Origin: an uncultured Collinsella sp.
GTDB lineage: Bacteria; Actinomycetota; Coriobacteriia; Coriobacteriales; Coriobacteriaceae
Direction: 5' to 3'
Length of the DNA stretch: 44,565 bases
Assembly (NCBI GenBank): GCA_900552185.1
Contig: URYT01000001.1
Location: 1 to 44,565 of the forward strand
In this document: positions 10,166 to 44,179 of the stretch, in pieces
How positions within the stretch are numbered: position 1 is the first letter of the stretch
How the letters are laid out: every line of letters begins with the position of its first letter
The notes under the pieces: model-generated
Database searches by the model: none
Told to the model about the DNA's origin: nothing
Seen by the model: only the letters and a program-made list of their open reading frames with translations
Program-made: the position numbers and the translations under genes

Positions 10166-11251
10166 ATGCACATTCCAGATAATTATCTGTCCCCGCAGAC
10201 CGATGCCGTCATGGCGGTGGCGATGGTGCCCGTCTGGGCTCACTGTATCAAGAAGGTGCGCGCCACGCTCGATCGCGAGCACATGGCTTTCCTAGGCATC
10301 TGCGCCGCATTTTCCTTCTTGCTTATGATGTTCAACGTGCCGCTGCCCGGCGGCACCACTGGCCACGCCGTTGGTGGCGCACTCATCGCGCTGCTGCTGG
10401 GCCCCGAGGCCGCGGCTATCGCGGTTTCGGTCGCGCTGGCGCTGCAAGCGCTGCTGTTTGGCGACGGCGGCATCCTGTCCTTTGGCGCTAACTGCTTTAA
10501 CATGGCCTTCGTGTTGCCGTTTGCCGCAGCCATCGTGTTCCGCGCGCTTAACAGCCGTTTGCACGACAAGAGCTGGGGCACCTCGGTTTCGGCCATCGTA
10601 AGCGGCTGGGTCGGCCTGTGCCTGGCGGCCCTGTGCGCAGCAATCGAGTTTGGTATTCAGCCGATGCTTTTCACGAGTGCTTCGGGCGCTCCGCTGTACT
10701 GTCCCTTCCCGCTGTCCATTGCCATTCCGGCCATGATGATCCCGCATATGTTGGTAGCCGGCGTGGTCGAGGGCGTGGCGACTGCCGCGATCTACGGCTT
10801 TATCAAGAAGACGGCGCCGGGCGTTATCGTCGGCCCCGAAGCCGCCGATGGACAGCTTGCTGCCGAGGGCGCTGCTGCAAAGAAGACCTCGCTGGTCCCC
10901 ACGCTCATCTTGGTTGCCGTGCTTGTCGTGGCCACGCCGCTGGGCCTGCTGGCCACGGGTGACGCCTGGGGTGAGTGGGACGCCGAGGGCGCCGCGACCG
11001 CCGTTCAGGAGGCTGGCGACGACAGCCTGCAGGCTTCGGTCGGTCTCGACACCCCGACCTTTGCCGACGCTCTGCCTACGGGTGATTACCTGCAGGCCTA
11101 TTCCGAGGAGCAGGGTCTCGGCTTTGCCGGTCAGGCTGCCATGTATATCCTGTCCGGCGTGATTGGCGTGGCGGTGCTCACCATCGCATTCCGTCTGATC
11201 TCGCTGACGGTCAAGGAAAGCGGAGCCCATGGCGATGGTCGAGCTGCCTAG
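10166..11251 (+). CDS. nikMN: Nickel ECF transporter substrate component, NikM-NikN fusion (CbiM family)
   Basis: N-terminus MHIPDNYL (NikM-type rather than CbiM MHIMEG), GTTGHAVG, QALLFGDGG, and a C-terminal extra TM/extracellular part with AWGEW. Confidence 0.85.
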   Translation: MHIPDNYLSPQTDAVMAVAMVPVWAHCIKKVRATLDREHMAFLGICAAFSFLLMMFNVPLPGGTTGHAVGGALIALLLGPEAAAIAVSVALALQALLFGDGGILSFGANCFNMAFVLPFAAAIVFRALNSRLHDKSWGTSVSAIVSGWVGLCLAALCAAIEFGIQPMLFTSASGAPLYCPFPLSIAIPAMMIPHMLVAGVVEGVATAAIYGFIKKTAPGVIVGPEAADGQLAAEGAAAKKTSLVPTLILVAVLVVATPLGLLATGDAWGEWDAEGAATAVQEAGDDSLQASVGLDTPTFADALPTGDYLQAYSEEQGLGFAGQAAMYILSGVIGVAVLTIAFRLISLTVKESGAHGDGRAA

Positions 11252-12065
11252 CTGGCTTGCGGCCGAGGAGCGATACGAGCCCACGGGCGCTCGTCATCGC
11301 GTGATGCAAAAGAACGTCCTGCACCTGGCGAGCCTGCTTGAGCGGGTTCGCCTGGGTGGAGGCGCGCACGAGGGCGGGTCGATGGTCGACCGCGCCCTTT
11401 CTTGCGTTTCGGCTCCGGTGCGCCTGGTGGGGATATTCGTTTGCGTCCTGTGCGTGTGCCTGACACAAAGCCCGCTGTACCTCATGTTGATGGCGGCCAT
11501 TGCGCTGGTGCTCGTTGCCGTGCGTCCCGTACGCGGGCTGCGCGCGACCTTTGTGCCGGCGCTTGGCGCCGCGGGGCTCGCAGTGGTTTTGGCGCTGCCT
11601 GCCCTGCTGCTGGGTGCTTCCGCTACGGGCGCCATGCTCAAGATTGCGCTCAAGACCTTCATTAATGTGTCGCTGGTGCTGGGCGTTTCGTGGACCCTCA
11701 CGTGGAGCCGCATGTCGGCGGCGCTCAAGATGCTGCATCTACCCGACGAAGTTATCTTTACGTTTGATATGGCGCTCAAGCACATCGAGGTGCTGGGTCG
11801 TACGGCGCACGATCTGTGCGAATCGGTCATGCTGCGCAGCGTTGGCCGTGCGCCCGAGGGATTTTCGCGTACCGATTCGATCGCGGGTATCATGGGCATG
11901 ACCTTTATCAAGGCGATGAAATGCAGCCGCGCGATGGACGAGGCTATGCTTTGCCGCGGCTTTGCCGGTGCGTATCCGGCTCCCGCGCGCGCCAGGTTTG
12001 GCTGGCGCGATGCGGCCTATGCGGCCGGCGTGGCGCTGCTGACAGTGTTGTGCGCCGTGCTGTAG
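11229..12065 (+). CDS. nikQ: ECF transporter T component (NikQ/CbiQ)
   Basis: Multi-TM, with 'VMLRS' and 'AMLCRGF' coupling-helix motifs. Overlaps nikMN. Confidence 0.85.
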   Translation: MAMVELPSWLAAEERYEPTGARHRVMQKNVLHLASLLERVRLGGGAHEGGSMVDRALSCVSAPVRLVGIFVCVLCVCLTQSPLYLMLMAAIALVLVAVRPVRGLRATFVPALGAAGLAVVLALPALLLGASATGAMLKIALKTFINVSLVLGVSWTLTWSRMSAALKMLHLPDEVIFTFDMALKHIEVLGRTAHDLCESVMLRSVGRAPEGFSRTDSIAGIMGMTFIKAMKCSRAMDEAMLCRGFAGAYPAPARARFGWRDAAYAAGVALLTVLCAVL

Positions 12066-12093
12066 GCGCTGCTGGTTCCGACTGGGGATGTAA

Positions 12094-12882
12094 ATGGGGA
12101 AGGGCGACGTTTTGACGATCGATATGAATAGTGCGGCGGGCACGAACGGTGTGGGCGGCGCCGAGGTCGTTCCGCTCATCGAGCTGCGCGACGTGGTGTT
12201 CTCCTATGCGGGGCATACGGTTGTCGATGGCGTGTCGCTGCAGGTCGATCGTGGTGAACTCGTTGCCCTGCTCGGTCCCAACGGCTGCGGCAAGACGACG
12301 ATTATGCGTCTTATTAACGGCCTTGAACTCGCGGACGCAGGGGCATACCTGTTTGACGGGCACGTGGTCGATGCGGCGTATCTGAAGGATTCTGCTGCTG
12401 CTCAGAAGTTCCACCAGCGCGTGGGCTTCGTATTCCAAAACGCCGATGCCCAGCTGTTCTGCGCCACGGTGGGCGAGGAAGTTGCTTTTGGTCCCGCGCA
12501 GATGGGGCTGCCGGCAGACGAGCTCGAGCGCCGCGTGCGCGATGCCATGGGGCTGTTCCAGGTTGCCGACCTTGCCGACGCCTCTCCCTATCAGCTCTCG
12601 GGCGGGCAAAAGAAGTGTGTGGCGCTGGCGGCAGTTGTATCGATGAATCCCGAAATCCTAGTGCTCGATGAGCCCACCAATGGGCTCGACGAGGATTCAT
12701 GCGACATCGTGGTCAACTTCTTGCTGGCCTACGTCGCGGCGGGTAAGACGGTCTTGATGAGCACGCATCACCAGGATTTGGTGCGACGCCTGGGTGCCCG
12801 TGCAATCTATATCGATCGATATCACCATGTGGTCGAGACGCCTTCGCCGTCGTATGGAACCGAAAGCGGTACTACGGACTAG
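12094..12882 (+). CDS. nikO: ECF transporter ATPase (NikO/CbiO)
   Basis: Walker A GPNGCGKT, VFQNADAQLF, signature LSGGQKK, Walker B LVLDEP, STH. Confidence 0.9.
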   Translation: MGKGDVLTIDMNSAAGTNGVGGAEVVPLIELRDVVFSYAGHTVVDGVSLQVDRGELVALLGPNGCGKTTIMRLINGLELADAGAYLFDGHVVDAAYLKDSAAAQKFHQRVGFVFQNADAQLFCATVGEEVAFGPAQMGLPADELERRVRDAMGLFQVADLADASPYQLSGGQKKCVALAAVVSMNPEILVLDEPTNGLDEDSCDIVVNFLLAYVAAGKTVLMSTHHQDLVRRLGARAIYIDRYHHVVETPSPSYGTESGTTD

Positions 12883-12962
12883 TTGCTGCGTAGAGCGTGC
12901 GTAGCCGCCCGCGCGGCTTTGCCGTGATGGTATAGTTATCCAGGTTTTTTATGGGGGTGGCT

Positions 12963-13811
12963 ATGCCAAGTTGGAACATTCATATCGCTCAGACGGAGCG
13001 TTTGCTGGAGCGCACCGGTGCACTTGCCAATAGCGTGCGCGACCGCAATGCCTTTTTGTTTGGCTGCGTGGTTCCGGATATCTTCGTGGGCTATATGGTC
13101 CCTGGCATCGCCGATCCCATCCCGTACCGCATTACGCACTTTGCAAAGCCCGAGCCTATCCCTAAGCCTCGTGAGCATGAGTTCTGGGATACCTATGTGG
13201 CACCGTTGCTTAAAAGTTCGCCCACCGGTGCGCCAGCCGCGGCTACCTCGATTGTCGAGGAGCGCGAGCGACTGAATCGCGTGCACTATCCCCAGCGCTA
13301 CAGGGATGCCGAGCCGGTTGCCGGTCCCGGCGCCTGTGAGTTCTCGCTTGCATCCGAAGATGTGGCGCAGTCGTTGCTCGATTTGACACTGGGTGTCTGG
13401 TCGCATCTGGTGGCCGATACCGTATGGAATACGCGCGTGAATCAGTACCTGGAGGCGCACGGCGGCAAGCCGTGCGAGGAGTTCCGCATTAAAAAGCAAG
13501 GCGACTTTGACTGGTTTGGCAAGACGCTCGGCATTGTTTCGATTCCGCGCGCGACCGATCGCCTGTATACTGCGGCGACGCGTTTTGGGCAGTATCCCAT
13601 CCATAAGGAGTATGTGCTCAAGACCATCGGCGTTATGCACGAGATCGTGCGAGAAAACCCCGGTGAGCCCGACCATCCGCCATACCGCCTGCTGACCGAG
13701 GAGTTCTTCGACGCGACGTTTGCCGAGGTCATCGAGCTGACCGAGGCGGGCTTTGCGGCTCGCGTCGAATCGTCTGATGTGCCTGCGCTGCCCCTGATTG
13801 CTAGCTGCTAG
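12963..13811 (+). CDS. Zinc-dependent phospholipase C / HD-like metal-binding protein
   Basis: MPSWNIH N-terminus, FLFGCVVPD, THF and GVWSHLVAD fit the Zn_dep_PLPC-like pattern. Start placed at ATG 12963. Confidence 0.6.
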   Translation: MPSWNIHIAQTERLLERTGALANSVRDRNAFLFGCVVPDIFVGYMVPGIADPIPYRITHFAKPEPIPKPREHEFWDTYVAPLLKSSPTGAPAAATSIVEERERLNRVHYPQRYRDAEPVAGPGACEFSLASEDVAQSLLDLTLGVWSHLVADTVWNTRVNQYLEAHGGKPCEEFRIKKQGDFDWFGKTLGIVSIPRATDRLYTAATRFGQYPIHKEYVLKTIGVMHEIVRENPGEPDHPPYRLLTEEFFDATFAEVIELTEAGFAARVESSDVPALPLIASC

Positions 13812-14014: not shown

Positions 14015-15475
14015 TTAGCGCACCTGAGCGACGTAAGCGACGTTGGTCGAGGAGACCTTGTCCTCGAGCTGGACGCTCATGCGGGGATCGCCGGCGGTAG
14101 CGACGGTCAGGTCGCCGGCCTCGACGTAGCCGAGCTCCTTAGCGGTCTCGATCGCCTTGACGATCGTGCCGTTGACGGTGCCCTGGGTAATCTCGGCCTG
14201 ATGCGGGATAACGCCCCAGTACATGATCATCTGCTGGACGGCCCACTCGTGGCGGGAGAACGCGCAGATCGGCATGTTGGGACGGAAGTGCGAAATCAGG
14301 CGAGCGGTACGACCGGTGGTCGTCGGCACGGTGATGCACTTGGCGCCAACGGTGGTGGCCATGTTCACAGCGGACATACCCACAACGTTGTTGACGACGC
14401 GGGTGCCATGAGCGTCGGCCGGAACCTCGAGCGGAGCGTGGGCCGGGAGGTACTTCTCGGTCTCGAGAGCAATGCTGGCCTGCATCTTGACGGCCTCGAC
14501 CGGGTACTTACCGGCAGCGGACTCGCCAGAGAGCATAACGGCGTCGGTGCCGTCGTAGATGGCGTTAGCAACGTCGGCAACCTCGGCGCGCGTCGGGCGC
14601 GGGTTCTGCTGCATGGAGTCGAGCATCTGCGTAGCGGTGATAACGGGCTTGTAGGCCGCGTTGCACTTGGCGATGATCTCCTTCTGGATGTGCGGAACGA
14701 GCTCGGGCTTGATCTCGATGCCCAGGTCGCCACGGGCGACCATGATGCCGTCGGAAGCCTCGAGGATCTCGTCGAAGTTCTCGACGCCCAGGGCGCACTC
14801 GATCTTCGGGAAGATCGTCACGTGCTCGCCGCCGTTCTCGCGGCAAAGCTCGCGGATGCCGCGGACGGACTCGCCGTCACGGATGAAGGAAGCGGCGATG
14901 TAGTCGATGTTCTCGGTCAGGCCAAAGAGGATGTCCTGACGATCGCGCTCGGTGATAGCGGGCAGCGAGATGTTGACGTTGGGCATGTTAACACCCTTGC
15001 GCTCGCCGATCAGGCCGTCGTTCTTGACGACGCAGGTCATGTCCTGGCCGTCGACGGACTCGACCTCGAGGGCAACCAGGCCGTCATCGATCAGGATGAG
15101 GGAGCCCTTCTCGACCTCGGAGGGCAGAGCCAGGTAGTCGAGGGAGATGTGCTCAGAGGTGCCGTGGAAATCCTCGGACGTGGGCTGAGCGGTGACGACG
15201 ATCTTGTCGCCGGTCTTGACGGCAACCTTCTTGCCATCGACCAGAAGGCCGGTGCGGACCTCGGGGCCCTTGGTGTCGAGCAGGATGCCGACGGGCAGAC
15301 CGAGCTCCTTGGAAATACGACGGACGCGCTCGATGCGACCGTGGTGCTCGTCGTAGGATCCGTGCGAGAAGTTAAAACGGGCGACGTTCATGCCCGCCTT
15401 GATCATCTCACGGATGGTCTCGTCGCTATCGCAGGCGGGACCCATGGTGCATACAATCTTGGTGCGCTTGTACAT
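14015..15475 (-). CDS. pyk: Pyruvate kinase
   Basis: RTKIVCTMGP, RFNFSHG, DTKGPEVR, MVARGDLG, TATQMLDSM, PTRAEVADVANA, MLSGES. Confidence 0.97.
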   Translation of the reverse strand: MYKRTKIVCTMGPACDSDETIREMIKAGMNVARFNFSHGSYDEHHGRIERVRRISKELGLPVGILLDTKGPEVRTGLLVDGKKVAVKTGDKIVVTAQPTSEDFHGTSEHISLDYLALPSEVEKGSLILIDDGLVALEVESVDGQDMTCVVKNDGLIGERKGVNMPNVNISLPAITERDRQDILFGLTENIDYIAASFIRDGESVRGIRELCRENGGEHVTIFPKIECALGVENFDEILEASDGIMVARGDLGIEIKPELVPHIQKEIIAKCNAAYKPVITATQMLDSMQQNPRPTRAEVADVANAIYDGTDAVMLSGESAAGKYPVEAVKMQASIALETEKYLPAHAPLEVPADAHGTRVVNNVVGMSAVNMATTVGAKCITVPTTTGRTARLISHFRPNMPICAFSRHEWAVQQMIMYWGVIPHQAEITQGTVNGTIVKAIETAKELGYVEAGDLTVATAGDPRMSVQLEDKVSSTNVAYVAQVR

Positions 15476-15804
15476 TCAGACCTCCATCTGACATCGTCTT
15501 GCGCTGATAGATAAACCATAAGAAATAAAACTGAGATGATTATAACGAAATGCCGACCGAATACCCCAAAAAATCGACCGTATGCCGAATTAGAAGTTCA
15601 TTTTTTGCGAATAAACGGTATATGCAAAAACTTTACCAACCGTTCTAACCGCTGCTATCTGGGCGATATTTCAGTTTGATGATGCACCGAAGAAAAAACG
15701 TTTTATCAATGTCGAACATCATACGGTCTGCATCGTTGCACTCGAGCCGTGTTTCCAATTGGAATGTTTTGGCTAGACGCGCCGCTTTGGGGTACCATAG
15801 CTCC

Positions 15805-15916
15805 ACTATCAACTGCCGCTCAGCACGGCAGCCTTGATGAGCCCTTGCCCTTCTCCTGGGAATTATGATCGGGCATCAATCTGCTGAGTGGCCCGAATCC
15901 CAGGAGGGGACTCTAT
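15805..15916 (+). promoter_or_regulatory. Structured 5' leader of the cation ATPase (candidate translational riboswitch)
   Basis: Two hairpins with complementary loops (CTCAGCA/TGCTGAG). The second hairpin sequesters the GGAGG RBS. Putative TTGGCT-N18-TACCAT promoter upstream. Confidence 0.55.
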
Positions 15917-18598
<2,682 letters not shown>

Positions 18599-18697: not shown

Positions 18698-18839
18698 TGC
18701 GGTATCCTTGCTGGCTTTTCTCCCGCGCGGATGATAAAGGGCTGAGGGAAAGTTTGTGAGCTGGTCGGGCTTTGCCCGGCCAGCTCTATTTGATTTAAAA
18801 TACCTGCTCAGTTGTGATTTATGGTGCTGGGAGGCGCTT

Positions 18840-20024
18840 GTGGGCAAGGCGAAGGCTAAGGCGAAGAAAAAGACGACGGGGGCGCGGGCTAAGCGCGATC
18901 GTCGTCGGAAGCTCGCGACCGAAGCCCCCGCGTCTGCCGAGGAGCTGCTGGCAAACGTGCCGGGACTTGACGCGCTGCAGGATGTTCCGGCGTTCGATGA
19001 CCTGCCGGTCGATGAAGCTCAGCAGGCGGCATTTGACGACTTTTGCGCACATACCGAGGAGCCCGAGCAGATGCAGCTTGGCGCCGTGGTGCGCCTGGAT
19101 CGCGGGTTTCCGCTGGTGGCCACTGCCGACGACACCTTTCGCGCCGAGCATGCCGTGGGGTTTGCCAAGTCGCGCGGCGAGGACGAGGTCCTGCTGCCTG
19201 CCGTGGGCGACCGTGTGGCGGTGCGCCGCGCTCCCGGGCACGATATGGGCGTGATTGAGTGCGTGCTGCCGCGCCGTACGAGCTTTGAGCGTTGGCGCGG
19301 CCGTGCCCGCGGAGAGCGCCAGGTGCTCTGCTCCAACGTGGATAGCGTGCTAATCGTGCAGGCGCTCGGTGCCGGCGAGGTACTGCTCGACCGCGTGGCG
19401 CGTTCGCTGGTGCTGGCGCTCGACTGCGATGCCGAGCCGGTGGTAGTGCTCACCAAAGCTGACCGTTGCGATGCCGAGGAGCTCGAGCGCGATCTGGACC
19501 GCGTGCGCTGCCTGGTGGGTCCGGACGTGCGCGTAATCGTGACGTCCTCTGCCGAGGGCCGCGGCCTGGACGAGGTTCGTTCCTGCGTGCCTGCCGGGAG
19601 CTGCGCCATGATTCTGGGCGAGTCGGGTGCCGGCAAGTCGACGCTGCTCAATGCGCTGCTGGGCCACGATACGTTGGCGACTGGCGGTGTGCGCGAACGC
19701 GACGACCAGGGCCGTCACACTACCGTCGCGCGCGTGATGGTGGCACTGCCGGGCGACGCCGGCGTGATCGCCGATGCCCCGGGCCTGCGCAGCTTACCGC
19801 TCGTGGGTCACGAGCGGGGTCTGGCGCGCGCCTTCCCCGAGATTGTCGAGGCATCGCGCGCGTGCCGGTTTGGCGATTGCACGCATACCCATGAGCCGGG
19901 TTGTGCCGTTCGCGAGGCCGAGGACGCCGGGCAGATCGACAGCCTGCGTTTGGAAACGTTCCAAAACCTGGCGTCATCCATGCGCGTGAGTGCTCAAATG
20001 CTCGATCCCGATGTCCACCTGTAA
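18840..20024 (+). CDS. rsgA: Ribosome small-subunit-dependent GTPase A
   Basis: Circularly permuted GTPase (TKAD, GESGAGKS, GRHTT, DAPG), Zn finger CRFGDCTHTHEPGC, OB-fold AVGD. GTG start after GGAGG. Confidence 0.92.
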   Translation: MGKAKAKAKKKTTGARAKRDRRRKLATEAPASAEELLANVPGLDALQDVPAFDDLPVDEAQQAAFDDFCAHTEEPEQMQLGAVVRLDRGFPLVATADDTFRAEHAVGFAKSRGEDEVLLPAVGDRVAVRRAPGHDMGVIECVLPRRTSFERWRGRARGERQVLCSNVDSVLIVQALGAGEVLLDRVARSLVLALDCDAEPVVVLTKADRCDAEELERDLDRVRCLVGPDVRVIVTSSAEGRGLDEVRSCVPAGSCAMILGESGAGKSTLLNALLGHDTLATGGVRERDDQGRHTTVARVMVALPGDAGVIADAPGLRSLPLVGHERGLARAFPEIVEASRACRFGDCTHTHEPGCAVREAEDAGQIDSLRLETFQNLASSMRVSAQMLDPDVHL

Positions 20025-20076: not shown

Positions 20077-20276
20077 GCTGCGAAAAAGCCTCGAAACATG
20101 CAGTTTGCTGACGTGCTGACCAAAACCTTGCCACGAGCTTGACGGGCTGGTTAGTTTTTGGTCAGCGATTGGTTTGACATCGAAAACCGAGATCGCGATT
20201 GCGCCGCTTTGCACTCTGACCACCCAGACAATGGTGGTACGGGCATTCGCCCGGCACTGCCATGAGAGGAGCGGCC

Positions 20277-20936
20277 GTGAACAAGAGCAAGCGCATCGCC
20301 ATCAGTCTGGTCGCGGGCGTGCTCGCTGCGCTGCTCTGCATGGTTTACGGCTCGTCGATTCGCTCGCAAGCCGAACAGGTCCAGGCTGAGACCTTGGCCA
20401 AGTACGGTGGCGATCGCGCCGAGGTATGCGTCGCGGCGCGCGATATCGATGTGGGCGAGACCCTCGATGAGACCAATGTCATAACCCAGGAATGGCTGAC
20501 GAGTCTGCTGCCGCGTGACGCGGCGACCGAGCTGCGCCAGGTGCGCGGCGACGTGACGACTTCGCGTATTCCCAAAAACGCCGTGATCTGCAATGTCTAC
20601 ACCAAGGCCGAGAGCCACAAGCTCGAGGTGCCTAAGGGCAAAGTCGCCGTTTCGGTGGCGGTCGATGCCGAGCACTCGGTCGGCGGCGCCACGGGCGTGG
20701 GCAGCTACGTGGATGTGTATGTGCAAAAAGACGGCGTAACCGATCGACTGTGCGGCGCGTACGTGATCGATACCAGTGAGGATTCCGGTGCCACGCGCGA
20801 GGGCAAGATCGAATGGGTGACGCTGGCGGCTGACCCCGAAGACGTCAAGGAACTGCTGGGAGCCTCGGGCAAGGGAACGGTCAGCTTGACGATTCCCGCC
20901 ACGGCGCGCGGCAAAAAGAGCGGAGGCGACAAGTGA
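20277..20936 (+). CDS. cpaB: Flp pilus assembly protein CpaB/RcpC (SAF domain)
   Basis: N-terminal TM, SAF motif VCVAARDIDVGETL, RcpC-like 'GKVAVSV..VGG...G.YVDV' and 'VTLA'. GTG start after GAGGAG. Confidence 0.8.
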   Translation: MNKSKRIAISLVAGVLAALLCMVYGSSIRSQAEQVQAETLAKYGGDRAEVCVAARDIDVGETLDETNVITQEWLTSLLPRDAATELRQVRGDVTTSRIPKNAVICNVYTKAESHKLEVPKGKVAVSVAVDAEHSVGGATGVGSYVDVYVQKDGVTDRLCGAYVIDTSEDSGATREGKIEWVTLAADPEDVKELLGASGKGTVSLTIPATARGKKSGGDK

Positions 20937-22585
20937 TGAAGGCGATCTGGCTTGCGTGCTGCGCGTGCGGCGATTACGGGCTGTTGCAGCGGGAAGTCGA
21001 GGGCCGTGATGCGGGTGCACAGGTGCTTCGCGTAGGTGACCTGGACGGGCTGGTTTCCATGGCTCGGGCGTTTCCGTCGCGCCGCGGGGCTGCCATCATC
21101 GCGGCGTCTCTGTTTGATGCCGAAGATGTGCGCAAGACTGTTGCGCGCCTGACGGCCGAAGGCCGCGTGAGTCGCGTGGTCGTGTTGATAGAAGCACTCG
21201 ATCCGTCGGATATCGAGGGGCTGTTTCGCGCAGGGGCGACCGAGGTCATCGCTGCGCACAGTATATGCGGCAACGGGTGCGCGGGCGAGGGAGCGGTTGA
21301 TTCCGATCGGCGCATGACGATTGAGCCCGATGCTTTTGTTGACAGGGAACCCGGGGCGCCTCGCGCTACAAGAGGCCCGCGTGTTGATGATTATGGAAAA
21401 GCGGAAGCCGAGCATGGTCGGCGCCCCCGGAACCCCCTTGTATACGATGACGCTGGAGGGCCGGCGCAGCATGCTGGCGATTCCCCGGCTGTAGATATGG
21501 GATACGTGCACGGCGTGAATCTGGCGGATGAACTCGACGAAGTTGAGGGCTTTGCCGGGTGCGGCGAGTTGTCGCTGATGCAGCATGAGCAGATTGCACA
21601 GAACGAGCCTGCCTCGCAGACCGAACAAGCTGCCATGCCGGCCTGGACGCAGCGTGTAGTTGCGGCGGGGGAGACGGGGACGCTGTCACCGACGCCCGCC
21701 CCGCCGCCTCCGATGCCGCCGGCAGACTCTGCCGCTCCGCCGCATCGAGCTCCGGTCATCTGCGCCATTTCGGGTTCGGGCGGTTGCGGCAAGTCGACGA
21801 TCGTTGCCACCATGGCACACACATCGTCGCTGTTGGGCTTGCGTGCCGCCGTGCTCGACCTGGACCTGATGTTTGGAAACCTTTACGACTTGTTAGGCGT
21901 CGATGCTCCGCACGATATGGCGGCACTTATCGAGCCGTCGGCGGCGGGCACGCTCACCGAGCCGGATATCGTGGCCGCATCGATGCGCGTCGCCCCGGGC
22001 GTTACGCTCTGGGGTCCCGTCGCGGCGCCCGAGCAAGCCGAGCTCATGGCACGTCCGGTGGAGCTACTGCTCGATGTCCTGCGTCGCGAATCCGACGTGG
22101 TCTTTATCGATACCTCGGTCTTTTGGGGCGATGCCGTGGCGGCTGCGGTGGCGGCGAGCGACCGTTGCCTGGTCGTTGGCGATGCGGCGGTGTCGTCCGC
22201 GACATCGGCATCGCGCGTCATTGAACTGGCAAGTCGAGTAGGTGTGCCGCGCACGCGCATGAGCGCCGTGTTCAACCGGTTCGGTGCGCGCGGGGCAGAC
22301 GAGGACGTCGCCATGCGCTTTGAGATCGCCTGTGCGTTGAGCTCCAAGATTCGTATCGCCGATGGCGGACAGGATCTCGCCGCGCTCATGGCGTTTGGGC
22401 GCGCCGACGAGGCAGTGGGTCAGACGAGCGCTTTTGCGACCAGCGTGCGCGAGGCCACGCGCGAGATGCTCGTGGAACTGGGGTGCGCCGTCGGCCCTTG
22501 GAGCGATATAGTCGCCGACCGTGCAACGCGTACCGAACGCCCGCGTATCCGCCTTCCCTGGTCGCGCGAGGGTGATCAGCGATGA
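20933..22585 (+). CDS. cpaE: TadZ/CpaE-like MinD/ParA ATPase with pseudo-receiver N-terminus
   Basis: Receiver-like 'LFRAGATEVI', long disordered linker, deviant Walker A SGSGGCGKS, LDLDLMFG, VFIDT, VFNR. Confidence 0.8.
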   Translation: MMKAIWLACCACGDYGLLQREVEGRDAGAQVLRVGDLDGLVSMARAFPSRRGAAIIAASLFDAEDVRKTVARLTAEGRVSRVVVLIEALDPSDIEGLFRAGATEVIAAHSICGNGCAGEGAVDSDRRMTIEPDAFVDREPGAPRATRGPRVDDYGKAEAEHGRRPRNPLVYDDAGGPAQHAGDSPAVDMGYVHGVNLADELDEVEGFAGCGELSLMQHEQIAQNEPASQTEQAAMPAWTQRVVAAGETGTLSPTPAPPPPMPPADSAAPPHRAPVICAISGSGGCGKSTIVATMAHTSSLLGLRAAVLDLDLMFGNLYDLLGVDAPHDMAALIEPSAAGTLTEPDIVAASMRVAPGVTLWGPVAAPEQAELMARPVELLLDVLRRESDVVFIDTSVFWGDAVAAAVAASDRCLVVGDAAVSSATSASRVIELASRVGVPRTRMSAVFNRFGARGADEDVAMRFEIACALSSKIRIADGGQDLAALMAFGRADEAVGQTSAFATSVREATREMLVELGCAVGPWSDIVADRATRTERPRIRLPWSREGDQR

Positions 22586-30388: not shown

Positions 30389-30461
<73 letters not shown>

Positions 30462-30474
30462 CCTTGAATTGACT

Positions 30475-36471: not shown

Positions 36472-36558
36472 GCGGGCGTGGCGGAATTGGCAGACGCGTA
36501 CGGTTCAGGTCCGTATGGGGGCAACCCCATGAAGGTTCAAGTCCTTTCGCCCGCACCA
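36472..36558 (+). tRNA. tRNA-Leu (CAG)
   Basis: GCGGGCG acceptor, anticodon arm TACGG-TTCAGGT-CCGTA, long variable arm, CCA end. Promoter TTGCGT-N17-TATTCT and terminator at 36566-36594. Confidence 0.96.
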
Positions 36559-41291: not shown

Positions 41292-41368
41292 GCGGCGTTA
41301 CCTCAGCTGGATAGAGGGTCTGACTACGAATCAGAACGTCATAGGTTCGAATCCTATACGCCGCACCA
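41292..41368 (+). tRNA. tRNA-Arg (ACG)
   Basis: GCGGCGT acceptor, anticodon arm TCTGA-CTACGAA-TCAGA, GGTTCGAATCC, CCA. Terminator at 41379-41409. Confidence 0.96.
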
Positions 41369-44088: not shown

Positions 44089-44179
44089 GGAGAGCTGACC
44101 GAGAGGCCGAAGGTGCTCGCCTGCTAAGCGAGTATGCCCCAAAAGGGCATCTGGGGTTCGAATCCCCAGCTCTCCGCCA
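44089..44179 (+). tRNA. tRNA-Ser (GCT)
   Basis: GGAGAGC acceptor, anticodon arm CTCGC-CTGCTAA-GCGAG, long variable arm, GCCA end. Promoter TTGCCC-N17-TACTAT. Confidence 0.96.

Follow-up and report, generated by a model that had tools for sequence, protein, structure and literature searches.

A P2A-type ATPase gene in an uncultured Collinsella sp. is preceded by a conserved leader RNA that, on balance, probably represents a new class of translational ON riboswitch for a divalent cation, Ca2+ or Mn2+. The window analysed is the whole 44,565-nt stretch, in which the leader and the gene have the following elements.

15793..15798, + strand: -10 box (TACCAT); TAnnnT stands at equal distance in most homologues
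15805..15916, + strand: 5' leader of about 112 nt, its start placed near 15805 from -10 spacing, RNA depth and an RNA contig end
15808..15838, + strand: hairpin 1, the predicted first-folding helix of the OFF state; its loop (15819-25) is the predicted P1 toehold
15815..15825, + strand: P1 5' strand, pairing with 15882-15892; 11 of 11 pairs have changes on both sides
15826..15833, + strand: P1/P2 internal loop (YGGCARCC), 72-87% conserved, doubling as the 3' arm of hairpin 1
15834..15839, + strand: P2 5' strand, pairing with 15874-15879
15840..15850, + strand: core 5' strand (AG bulge, P3 CCC, UUG, P4 CCC); G-CCC-UUG-CC is 100% conserved in 134 unique leaders, a figure partly built in by the search patterns
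15850..15861, + strand: apical loop and P4 3' strand, the anti-Shine-Dalgarno (anti-SD) that pairs with the RBS arm
15858..15873, + strand: core 3' strand (GGG-ARUUAYRAUC-GGG), almost invariant, the likely candidate ligand pocket
15869-74/15891-96, + strand: inner stem of hairpin 2, its loop holding the complement 15882-88
15874..15879, + strand: P2 3' strand, covarying with the P2 5' strand
15882..15892, + strand: P1 3' strand, including the 'kiss' segment 15882-88 of a first-pass annotation
15898..15909, + strand: RBS arm, with a conserved CCC before AGGAG; can displace the P4 5' strand
15917..18598, + strand: P2A-type ATPase gene, 893 aa

The best NCBIfam matches of the 893-aa ATPase are Ca2+ pumps, at scores below their cut-offs, and its best solved relative is Listeria LMCA1. 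At two positions, where LMCA1 has Ala (TM5) and Arg (TM8), the window protein has Glu; we take these to be the SERCA site-I and site-II Ca2+ ligands, giving a two-site SERCA pattern. A strongly transcribed pyruvate kinase gene (14015-15475, - strand; RNA contig end at 15530, in the region 15476-15800) runs divergently from the ATPase gene. On the + strand, a 286-aa ORF (12951-13811) has no NCBIfam match, and three ORFs (10166-12882) presumably encode a CbiM/CbiQ/CbiO-type cobalt or nickel uptake system, judged by eye. Downstream of the ATPase lie an RsgA-like GTPase gene (18756-20024, + strand) and ORFs that, again by eye, we assume to be Flp/Tad pilus assembly genes (20262-22585, + strand). 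An Rfam search of the whole window returned tRNAs only: Phe (30389-30463), Leu (36472-36558), Arg (41292-41368) and Ser (44089-44179).

The leader is transcribed directly ahead of the gene, as a riboswitch must be. In all three stranded raw runs, which come from one study, sense RNA depth is about 20 upstream, 110-127 in 15810-50 and about 500 in the gene, and one RNA contig from another study ends at 15805. A start near 15805 would fit the -10 box at 15793-98. A consensus promoter scan found no sigma-70 promoter; a -10-like box is listed in 77 of 79 leaders, a few of them assigned to an incorrect position too far upstream. The 5' ends of reads accumulate at 15823-26, within hairpin 1, where only about a third of molecules end, and the divergent gene likewise has read-end pile-ups 25-40 nt inside its RNA contig end. 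ATPase mRNA was plentiful in the one condition sampled, which bears on transcription and not on translation. The three raw runs show no fall in coverage between leader and gene and a scan of the + strand found no terminator-like site, so that we rejected transcription attenuation.

The first-pass annotation had described two hairpins that kiss through complementary loops and an alternative fold that melts both and could free the RBS. Every element it named is present in the sequence, and its two-hairpin fold is indeed the predicted minimum free energy (MFE) structure (-49.3 kcal/mol, z -2.34; 3 of 200 shuffles equally stable). The leader holds two helices of at least 11 bp within 112 nt, as does none of 500 dinucleotide shuffles. 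The alternative fold is real and mutually exclusive with the hairpins, but in its original form C15874 was used twice, in TTGATG/CATCAA and in GCCC/GGGC; the homologues agree with a register of UUGAUG/CAUCAA followed by an AG bulge and CCC/GGG.

DNA searches of relatives gave matches that begin inside the leader and run onward, in a second family, and 77 divergent regions were collected from them. A core-pattern scan of named genomes, with a pattern that leaves out the window's own 3-G form, yielded at least 119 loci; the same two-site P2A ATPase lies directly downstream in 119 of 119 among the pattern matches listed. Combining 79 leaders with 117 of the at least 119 pattern loci gave 196 leaders, 134 of them unique. 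Given 62 leaders, an alignment that leaves out short forms and near-duplicates, RNAalifold arrived unaided at one long unbranched hairpin with four helices, P1 to P4: an internal loop separates P1 from P2, an AG bulge P2 from P3 and a 3-by-10 internal loop P3 from P4, which is capped by a variable apical loop. In this fold 92.0% of cells are paired, a level that none of 500 shuffles reaches, and double-sided changes occur in 15 of 23 pairs. On a tree of the first 255 coding bases, counting 91 canonical leaders among the 122 placed on it, the 15 P1/P2 pairs have at least 64 co-changes (mean 4.3; control mean 1.24 per pair, sd 1.55). One P2 pair alone has at least nine (U-A, C-G, A-U), and 121 of 134 leaders keep five or six of the six P2 pairs. 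G-U wobbles exchange with A-U and G-C pairs, which points to RNA.

Besides the covarying P1 and P2, the leader has the highly conserved loop nucleotides typical of a riboswitch. P3, P4 and the loop between them, CCC-UUG-CCC against GGG-ARUUAYRAUC-GGG, are invariant or nearly so, and sequence outside P1 is near random; the core 5' strand is also invariant in an alignment (A1) gathered without the pattern. The core pairs never vary, and P3, P4 and a UUG/YRA pairing therefore have no covariation support: UUG/YRA could form in the core, with all three pairs kept in 121 of 134 leaders, and no covariation was found for it. We rejected a leader peptide or leader-peptide attenuator as the source of this conservation: 130 of 134 leaders have a start-like codon ahead of the core, but the frames split 39/41/54, lengths are scattered and third codon positions are invariant.

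The invariant bases could instead be DNA signals, with a TAnnAT box in ARUUAYRAUC serving as a second promoter or operator and the RNA pairing as a mere translational brake. The T, A, A and T at -10-like positions are 99-100% conserved and an invariant TTG lies upstream of the box, which is what such a signal calls for. The spacer between TTG and box, however, is 12-14 nt in 112 of 134 leaders and ranges from 8 to 27 nt (loop length + 6); RNA coverage starts 60 nt upstream of the box, no pile-up stands downstream of it among the read ends listed, and P1/P2 covariation would be left unexplained. We regard this reading as very improbable.

Set against the same alignment, the two-hairpin fold is 69.2% paired column by column. 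The first-pass annotation had looked to covariation of both stems and of the loop pair; the kiss pairs do covary (93.8% paired), but hairpin 1 and the inner stem are paired in only 53% and 56%. As the defining feature the kissing loop did not hold up, since its seven pairs are part of the 11-pair helix P1, and evolution keeps the supposed alternative fold rather than the kissing hairpin pair. The invariant nucleotides sit in the P3-P4 internal loop, which the annotation had counted within that alternative fold. It is quite improbable that hairpins 1 and 2 dock through an ion-stabilised loop-loop kiss that nucleates the switch. The duplex would be worth -9.6 kcal/mol, folding predicts an equivalent of hairpin 1 for 74 of 96 canonical leaders and an inner stem of some kind for 81, and at least five nucleotides of the P1 5' strand are predicted free in 63 of the 96; the window has four contiguous pairs free on both sides, and the folding program cannot score kisses, which leaves room for refolding of the finished mRNA in some lineages. 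Yet only 10 of 96 canonical leaders, the window's among them, have at least 4 nt of both kiss strands free in their predicted OFF ensembles, and the loop bases are among the least conserved (50-75%) and missing from 9 of 134 leaders. We therefore rejected the kiss as a general conserved core. Most plausibly, the complementarity of the hairpin 1 loop would act as a toehold between that loop and the nascent single strand.

The comparative leader set bears out the proposal of a conserved, RBS-sequestering cis-RNA for this P2-type ATPase. An anti-SD helix of at least 8 bp with the RBS region can form in 119 of 134 leaders, with U-A to C-G compensation in four, and it uses up P4 and thereby destroys the core; by prediction, then, the expression platform and the aptamer are mutually exclusive. 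For 109 of 134 leaders OFF is predicted to be the default state, and forcing P3 and P4 (the ON state) costs a median of 5.6 kcal/mol. The predicted ON fold leaves four or five of the five SD nucleotides free in only 73 of 134 leaders. No pairing between the SD and the P4 loop is predicted for 18 of the 134, some of which use another anti-SD. In L183, L200 and L201 (Atopobium fossor, Atopobium sp. and Atopobium minutum) the apical loop is not an anti-SD, and the sequence before the RBS is complementary to the core 3' strand, a second route to the same OFF state.

In the window itself, ON lies above OFF by 7 kcal/mol (constrained MFE) to 12 kcal/mol (named helices only), a gap so large that kinetic control would be needed. 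A folding series over growing window transcripts forms hairpin 1 first and the P3-P4 arm at 15874; P1 replaces hairpin 1 from 15890 and the anti-SD helix appears from 15906. Between 15890 and 15902, RNAfold favours another register over P2/P3 (probability 0.11-0.18). What the data show is conservation, covariation, the position of the motif, its transcription and the anti-SD helix; the order of folding, the direction of switching, direct binding of a ligand and its identity are our inference. Hairpin 1 would fold first during transcription, followed by the P3-P4 arm; the emerging P1 3' strand would pair into the hairpin 1 loop and unzip that hairpin, so that the long hairpin would be complete about 15-30 nt before the RBS emerges. 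In the ligand-free state the RBS arm would pair into the apical loop and invade P4, hairpin 1 would re-form, and translation would be off. Ligand bound in the invariant P3-P4 internal loop would keep the long hairpin intact, leaving the RBS available and letting the pump be made. A default OFF state, an invariant pocket broken by the RBS arm and an exporter-type gene together give the anatomy of a translational ON riboswitch.

The same two folds would also serve if a protein or a trans-acting RNA bound the invariant loop and held the leader ON or OFF, the RNA itself being no ion sensor. A protein-binding site could well look like this loop, which is small, invariant and limited to one lineage and one gene family; all the comparative results are compatible with one, and the ON-OFF gap is large for a single ion. 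Each ATPase copy, however, has only one site, the genome of the window has no further one, and the pump's nearest relatives have a riboswitch-like leader at the same place; we consider such a bound factor unlikely.

Among the genomes searched, the motif is confined to a narrow group of hosts. A covariance model found it in 43 of 43 genomes of two families and in none of 105 other genomes of the class (strict filters, 25 candidates scored per genome), and the exact pattern occurs across the phylum in 15 of 15 genomes of the two families and in none of 386 others. The families are likely Coriobacteriaceae and Atopobiaceae, judging from the named records: hosts among the best 80 of the at least 119 pattern loci are Collinsella, Olsenella, Atopobium, Lancefieldella and kin, or unclassified bins. 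In other phyla the covariance model found no motif in 80 ATPase loci, the scan there covering the matches listed; a viral scan gave two ATPase loci, both without it. The genome of the window has a single copy by covariance-model search, and where the ATPase is duplicated each copy keeps its own motif. The motif was not found at mntP-like genes, with three of eight such loci displayed and the single covariance-model match in the window's own genome excluding its mntP.

Some genomes have two neighbouring ATPase copies (L392, L393 and L396; also L111, L120, L121 and L134), the leader of the second having a degenerate P2, a AAUUAAGAUC loop and a changed anti-SD. The window's pump clusters with the second copy in a protein tree, and such copies may have altered specificity. 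Nine of 134 leaders begin at P2 and have neither P1 nor hairpin 1, so that the minimal unit is P2-P3-P4. In the short forms (L034, L114, L118, L131, L133, L136, L166, L227, L251, L397 and L398) transcription apparently begins right at P2, and most of them have an unrelated GC-rich hairpin between core and RBS.

The nearest relatives of the pump outside these families are 57-68% identical to a clostridial query and, where named, belong to Eubacteriales, Clostridia or Oscillospiraceae. Tokens of the yybP-ykoY type occur in 60 of 79 leaders of these relatives (four leaders that were too short were dropped). None of 40 clostridial loci reaches the RF00080 threshold; among 13 clostridial loci, three match SSRC10 and one matches RF00080 weakly. 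The clostridial leaders thus seem to be yybP-ykoY-like, to judge from weak Rfam matches, likeness to RF00080 matches and the consensus of the class. Many such RNAs (L301-L383) score below the RF00080 threshold, and some fit 'Streptococcus sRNA 10' (RF02617) better, possibly a riboswitch of this kind itself. A hairpin sequence of 18 nt is common to the yybP-like P2 stem of clostridial L353 and hairpin 1 of L079, L104 and kin, a sharing at chance level by rough estimate. In a quick tree of 61 proteins, which used SH-aLRT support alone and a looser token pattern, the 13 motif-led pumps form one branch (SH-aLRT 100) inside the yybP-like-led group. The simplest reading would be that the pump gene came from Clostridia and its leader was then replaced. 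The idea that yybP-ykoY RNAs are absent from the two families (0 of 39 genomes by RF00080) was dropped: the window's own genome has a yybP-ykoY-like leader before an mntP-like gene (G000:C93:2958-3056, E 4e-11), with a terminator-like hairpin, which the RF00080 search missed. Two of eight other mntP loci have a yybP-like leader as well (L387 and L388), and a third (L384) has a 5' remnant.

Given this ancestry, the motif could be a yybP-ykoY riboswitch that came with the pump gene and was then rearranged (circularly permuted) or degenerated. The gene slot is that of the yybP-like leaders, short tokens are alike in cyclic order (YGG, GAYGAG, GGGARUUA, RUCAAY), and the lack of an Rfam hit is a weak test, since many apparently genuine members escape Rfam's Mn2+ model. 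A profile built from the clostridial leaders nevertheless scores at shuffle level on the 134 leaders at 16 of 16 cut points (median about 11, shuffles 12, self 69), whether linear or permuted; nhmmer yields no match at E 10, the motif's covariance model finds nothing in 80 ATPase loci of this kind, and the RUCAA stretch is paired and covarying in motif leaders. Circular permutation is thereby largely refuted at the sequence level, and we rate any such derivation as the most improbable of the alternatives. Nor do the membership features of the class appear in the motif leader: the ordered tokens GGGAGUA, UCAACA, YUGG and GAGAC of the fetched yybP-like leaders are missing, as is a three- or four-way junction, the consensus here being an unbranched hairpin. 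RF00080 gave no match in the window at its gathering score, none in 15400-16100 at E 10 and none in 12 homologous loci at E 5, with a model that misses clostridial members too.

M-box (Mg2+) and NiCo riboswitches are metal-sensing transporter leaders with larger, multi-way folds. The motif is likewise a candidate metal-sensing transporter leader, but it matches no Rfam family: the search by which the first-pass annotation would have excluded known classes found nothing under E 3 on the leader and generic hairpin matches only on 12 further homologous loci, and the M-box, NiCo, guanidine-IV, Na+-I, Li+-I, Li+-II and Na+-II models have no match on the leader or its homologues. The streptococcal three-way-junction form of yybP-ykoY on mgtA/caxP likewise stands before a PII-type ATPase and turns the pump on, according to the available text of PMC6649816. 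The two share no sequence, and a single unbranched hairpin here replaces the junction there; the anti-SD lies in the apical loop here, whereas clostridial yybP-like leaders are followed by a terminator-like hairpin with a U-run. The terC motif is likewise an orphan before genes normally under Mn2+ riboswitches, but on other genes and, in the portion of the report seen, with no cation response found (Weinberg 2017, PMC5737381). Na+-I (DUF1646), Li+-I/Na+-II (nhaA-I) and Li+-II are also small ion-sensing ON switches before transporters, and most Li+ switches are thought to act on the RBS; as described in the available text, they differ by their separate P1 and P2 stems with conserved bases at the P1 base and P2 loop, and Na+-I is reported there from other phyla than the motif's (PMC9337991, PMC9646797). 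Guanidine-IV and the Gd4v motifs comprise two hairpins joined by a loop pseudoknot, much like the kissing picture, but in the accessible descriptions conservation clusters around the pseudoknot and the second hairpin serves as a terminator (PMC9788692, PMC7736828), while in our leaders the pairing bases vary freely and the conserved core lies elsewhere. The motif would work like known ion-sensing leaders and fails the membership tests of each, and is therefore a candidate for a new riboswitch class. A literature search, from which the supplements of PMC5737381 and PMC11109978 fell outside, found no prior description of it. The available article and supplement text of PMC8632094 holds no relevant term, and the tables seen of PMC8040213 (its files 7 and 8 lying outside the search) have no Coriobacteriia-specific row among five prokaryotic Ca-type P-ATPase rows and none in the upstream-gene table.

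With one gene context in two families, the ligand has to be guessed from one protein. If the motif is a divalent-cation riboswitch, Ca2+ is slightly favoured as its ligand, Mn2+ is a strong contender and another cation is the least expected. Mn2+ is suggested by the gene slot that was inherited. Three observations speak for a different signal, with Ca2+ as the first candidate: the type of pump, the lack of the motif at mntP-like genes, and the presence of a Mn2+-type leader in the same genome. The yybP-ykoY RNA of S. pneumoniae binds both Ca2+ and Mn2+ and activates a PII-type Mn2+/Ca2+ pump mainly with Mn2+, as far as the text consulted goes (PMC6649816). A search for a calcium riboswitch found none in the literature, and a 2022 review of riboswitch ligands counts classes for Na+, Mg2+, Mn2+, Li+, F- and Ni2+/Co2+ and, in the part available, never mentions calcium (PMC9971707).

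The mntP leader in the same genome could equally mean that the pump RNA reads something else, namely pH, temperature or a small metabolite. Some yybP-ykoY RNAs are under alkaline-pH control in the available account (PMC10197570), and the terC motif, in a similar gene slot, is a precedent without cation response (PMC5737381). The invariant loop bases suggest a binding pocket, however, and the ion-site residues of the pump equal those of its yybP-led relatives; for a thermometer, the 12-bp OFF helix is stable, by a comparison from general knowledge. Sensing of this kind strikes us as distinctly unlikely. Within the reading of the leader as a divalent-cation riboswitch, a more specific scenario can be drawn, which we hold only tentatively as a possibility. 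The motif would be the first Ca2+-dedicated riboswitch class, a compact hairpin that arose in the ancestor of the two families, replaced a Mn2+ riboswitch on a pump gene derived from Clostridia, and reads Ca2+ in its P3-P4 loop, with the yybP-ykoY RNA at mntP handling Mn2+ in the same cell.

If the ligand is Mn2+, the motif would provide a second, unrelated Mn2+ aptamer and a clear case of riboswitch class replacement on the same gene. The natural forms consisting of P2-P3-P4 alone point to a minimal aptamer. The motif's hosts are common in the gut and mouth. Little is known of how bacteria sense cytoplasmic Ca2+ or of which substrates P2A pumps export, and a construct of 50-90 nt makes the question testable.
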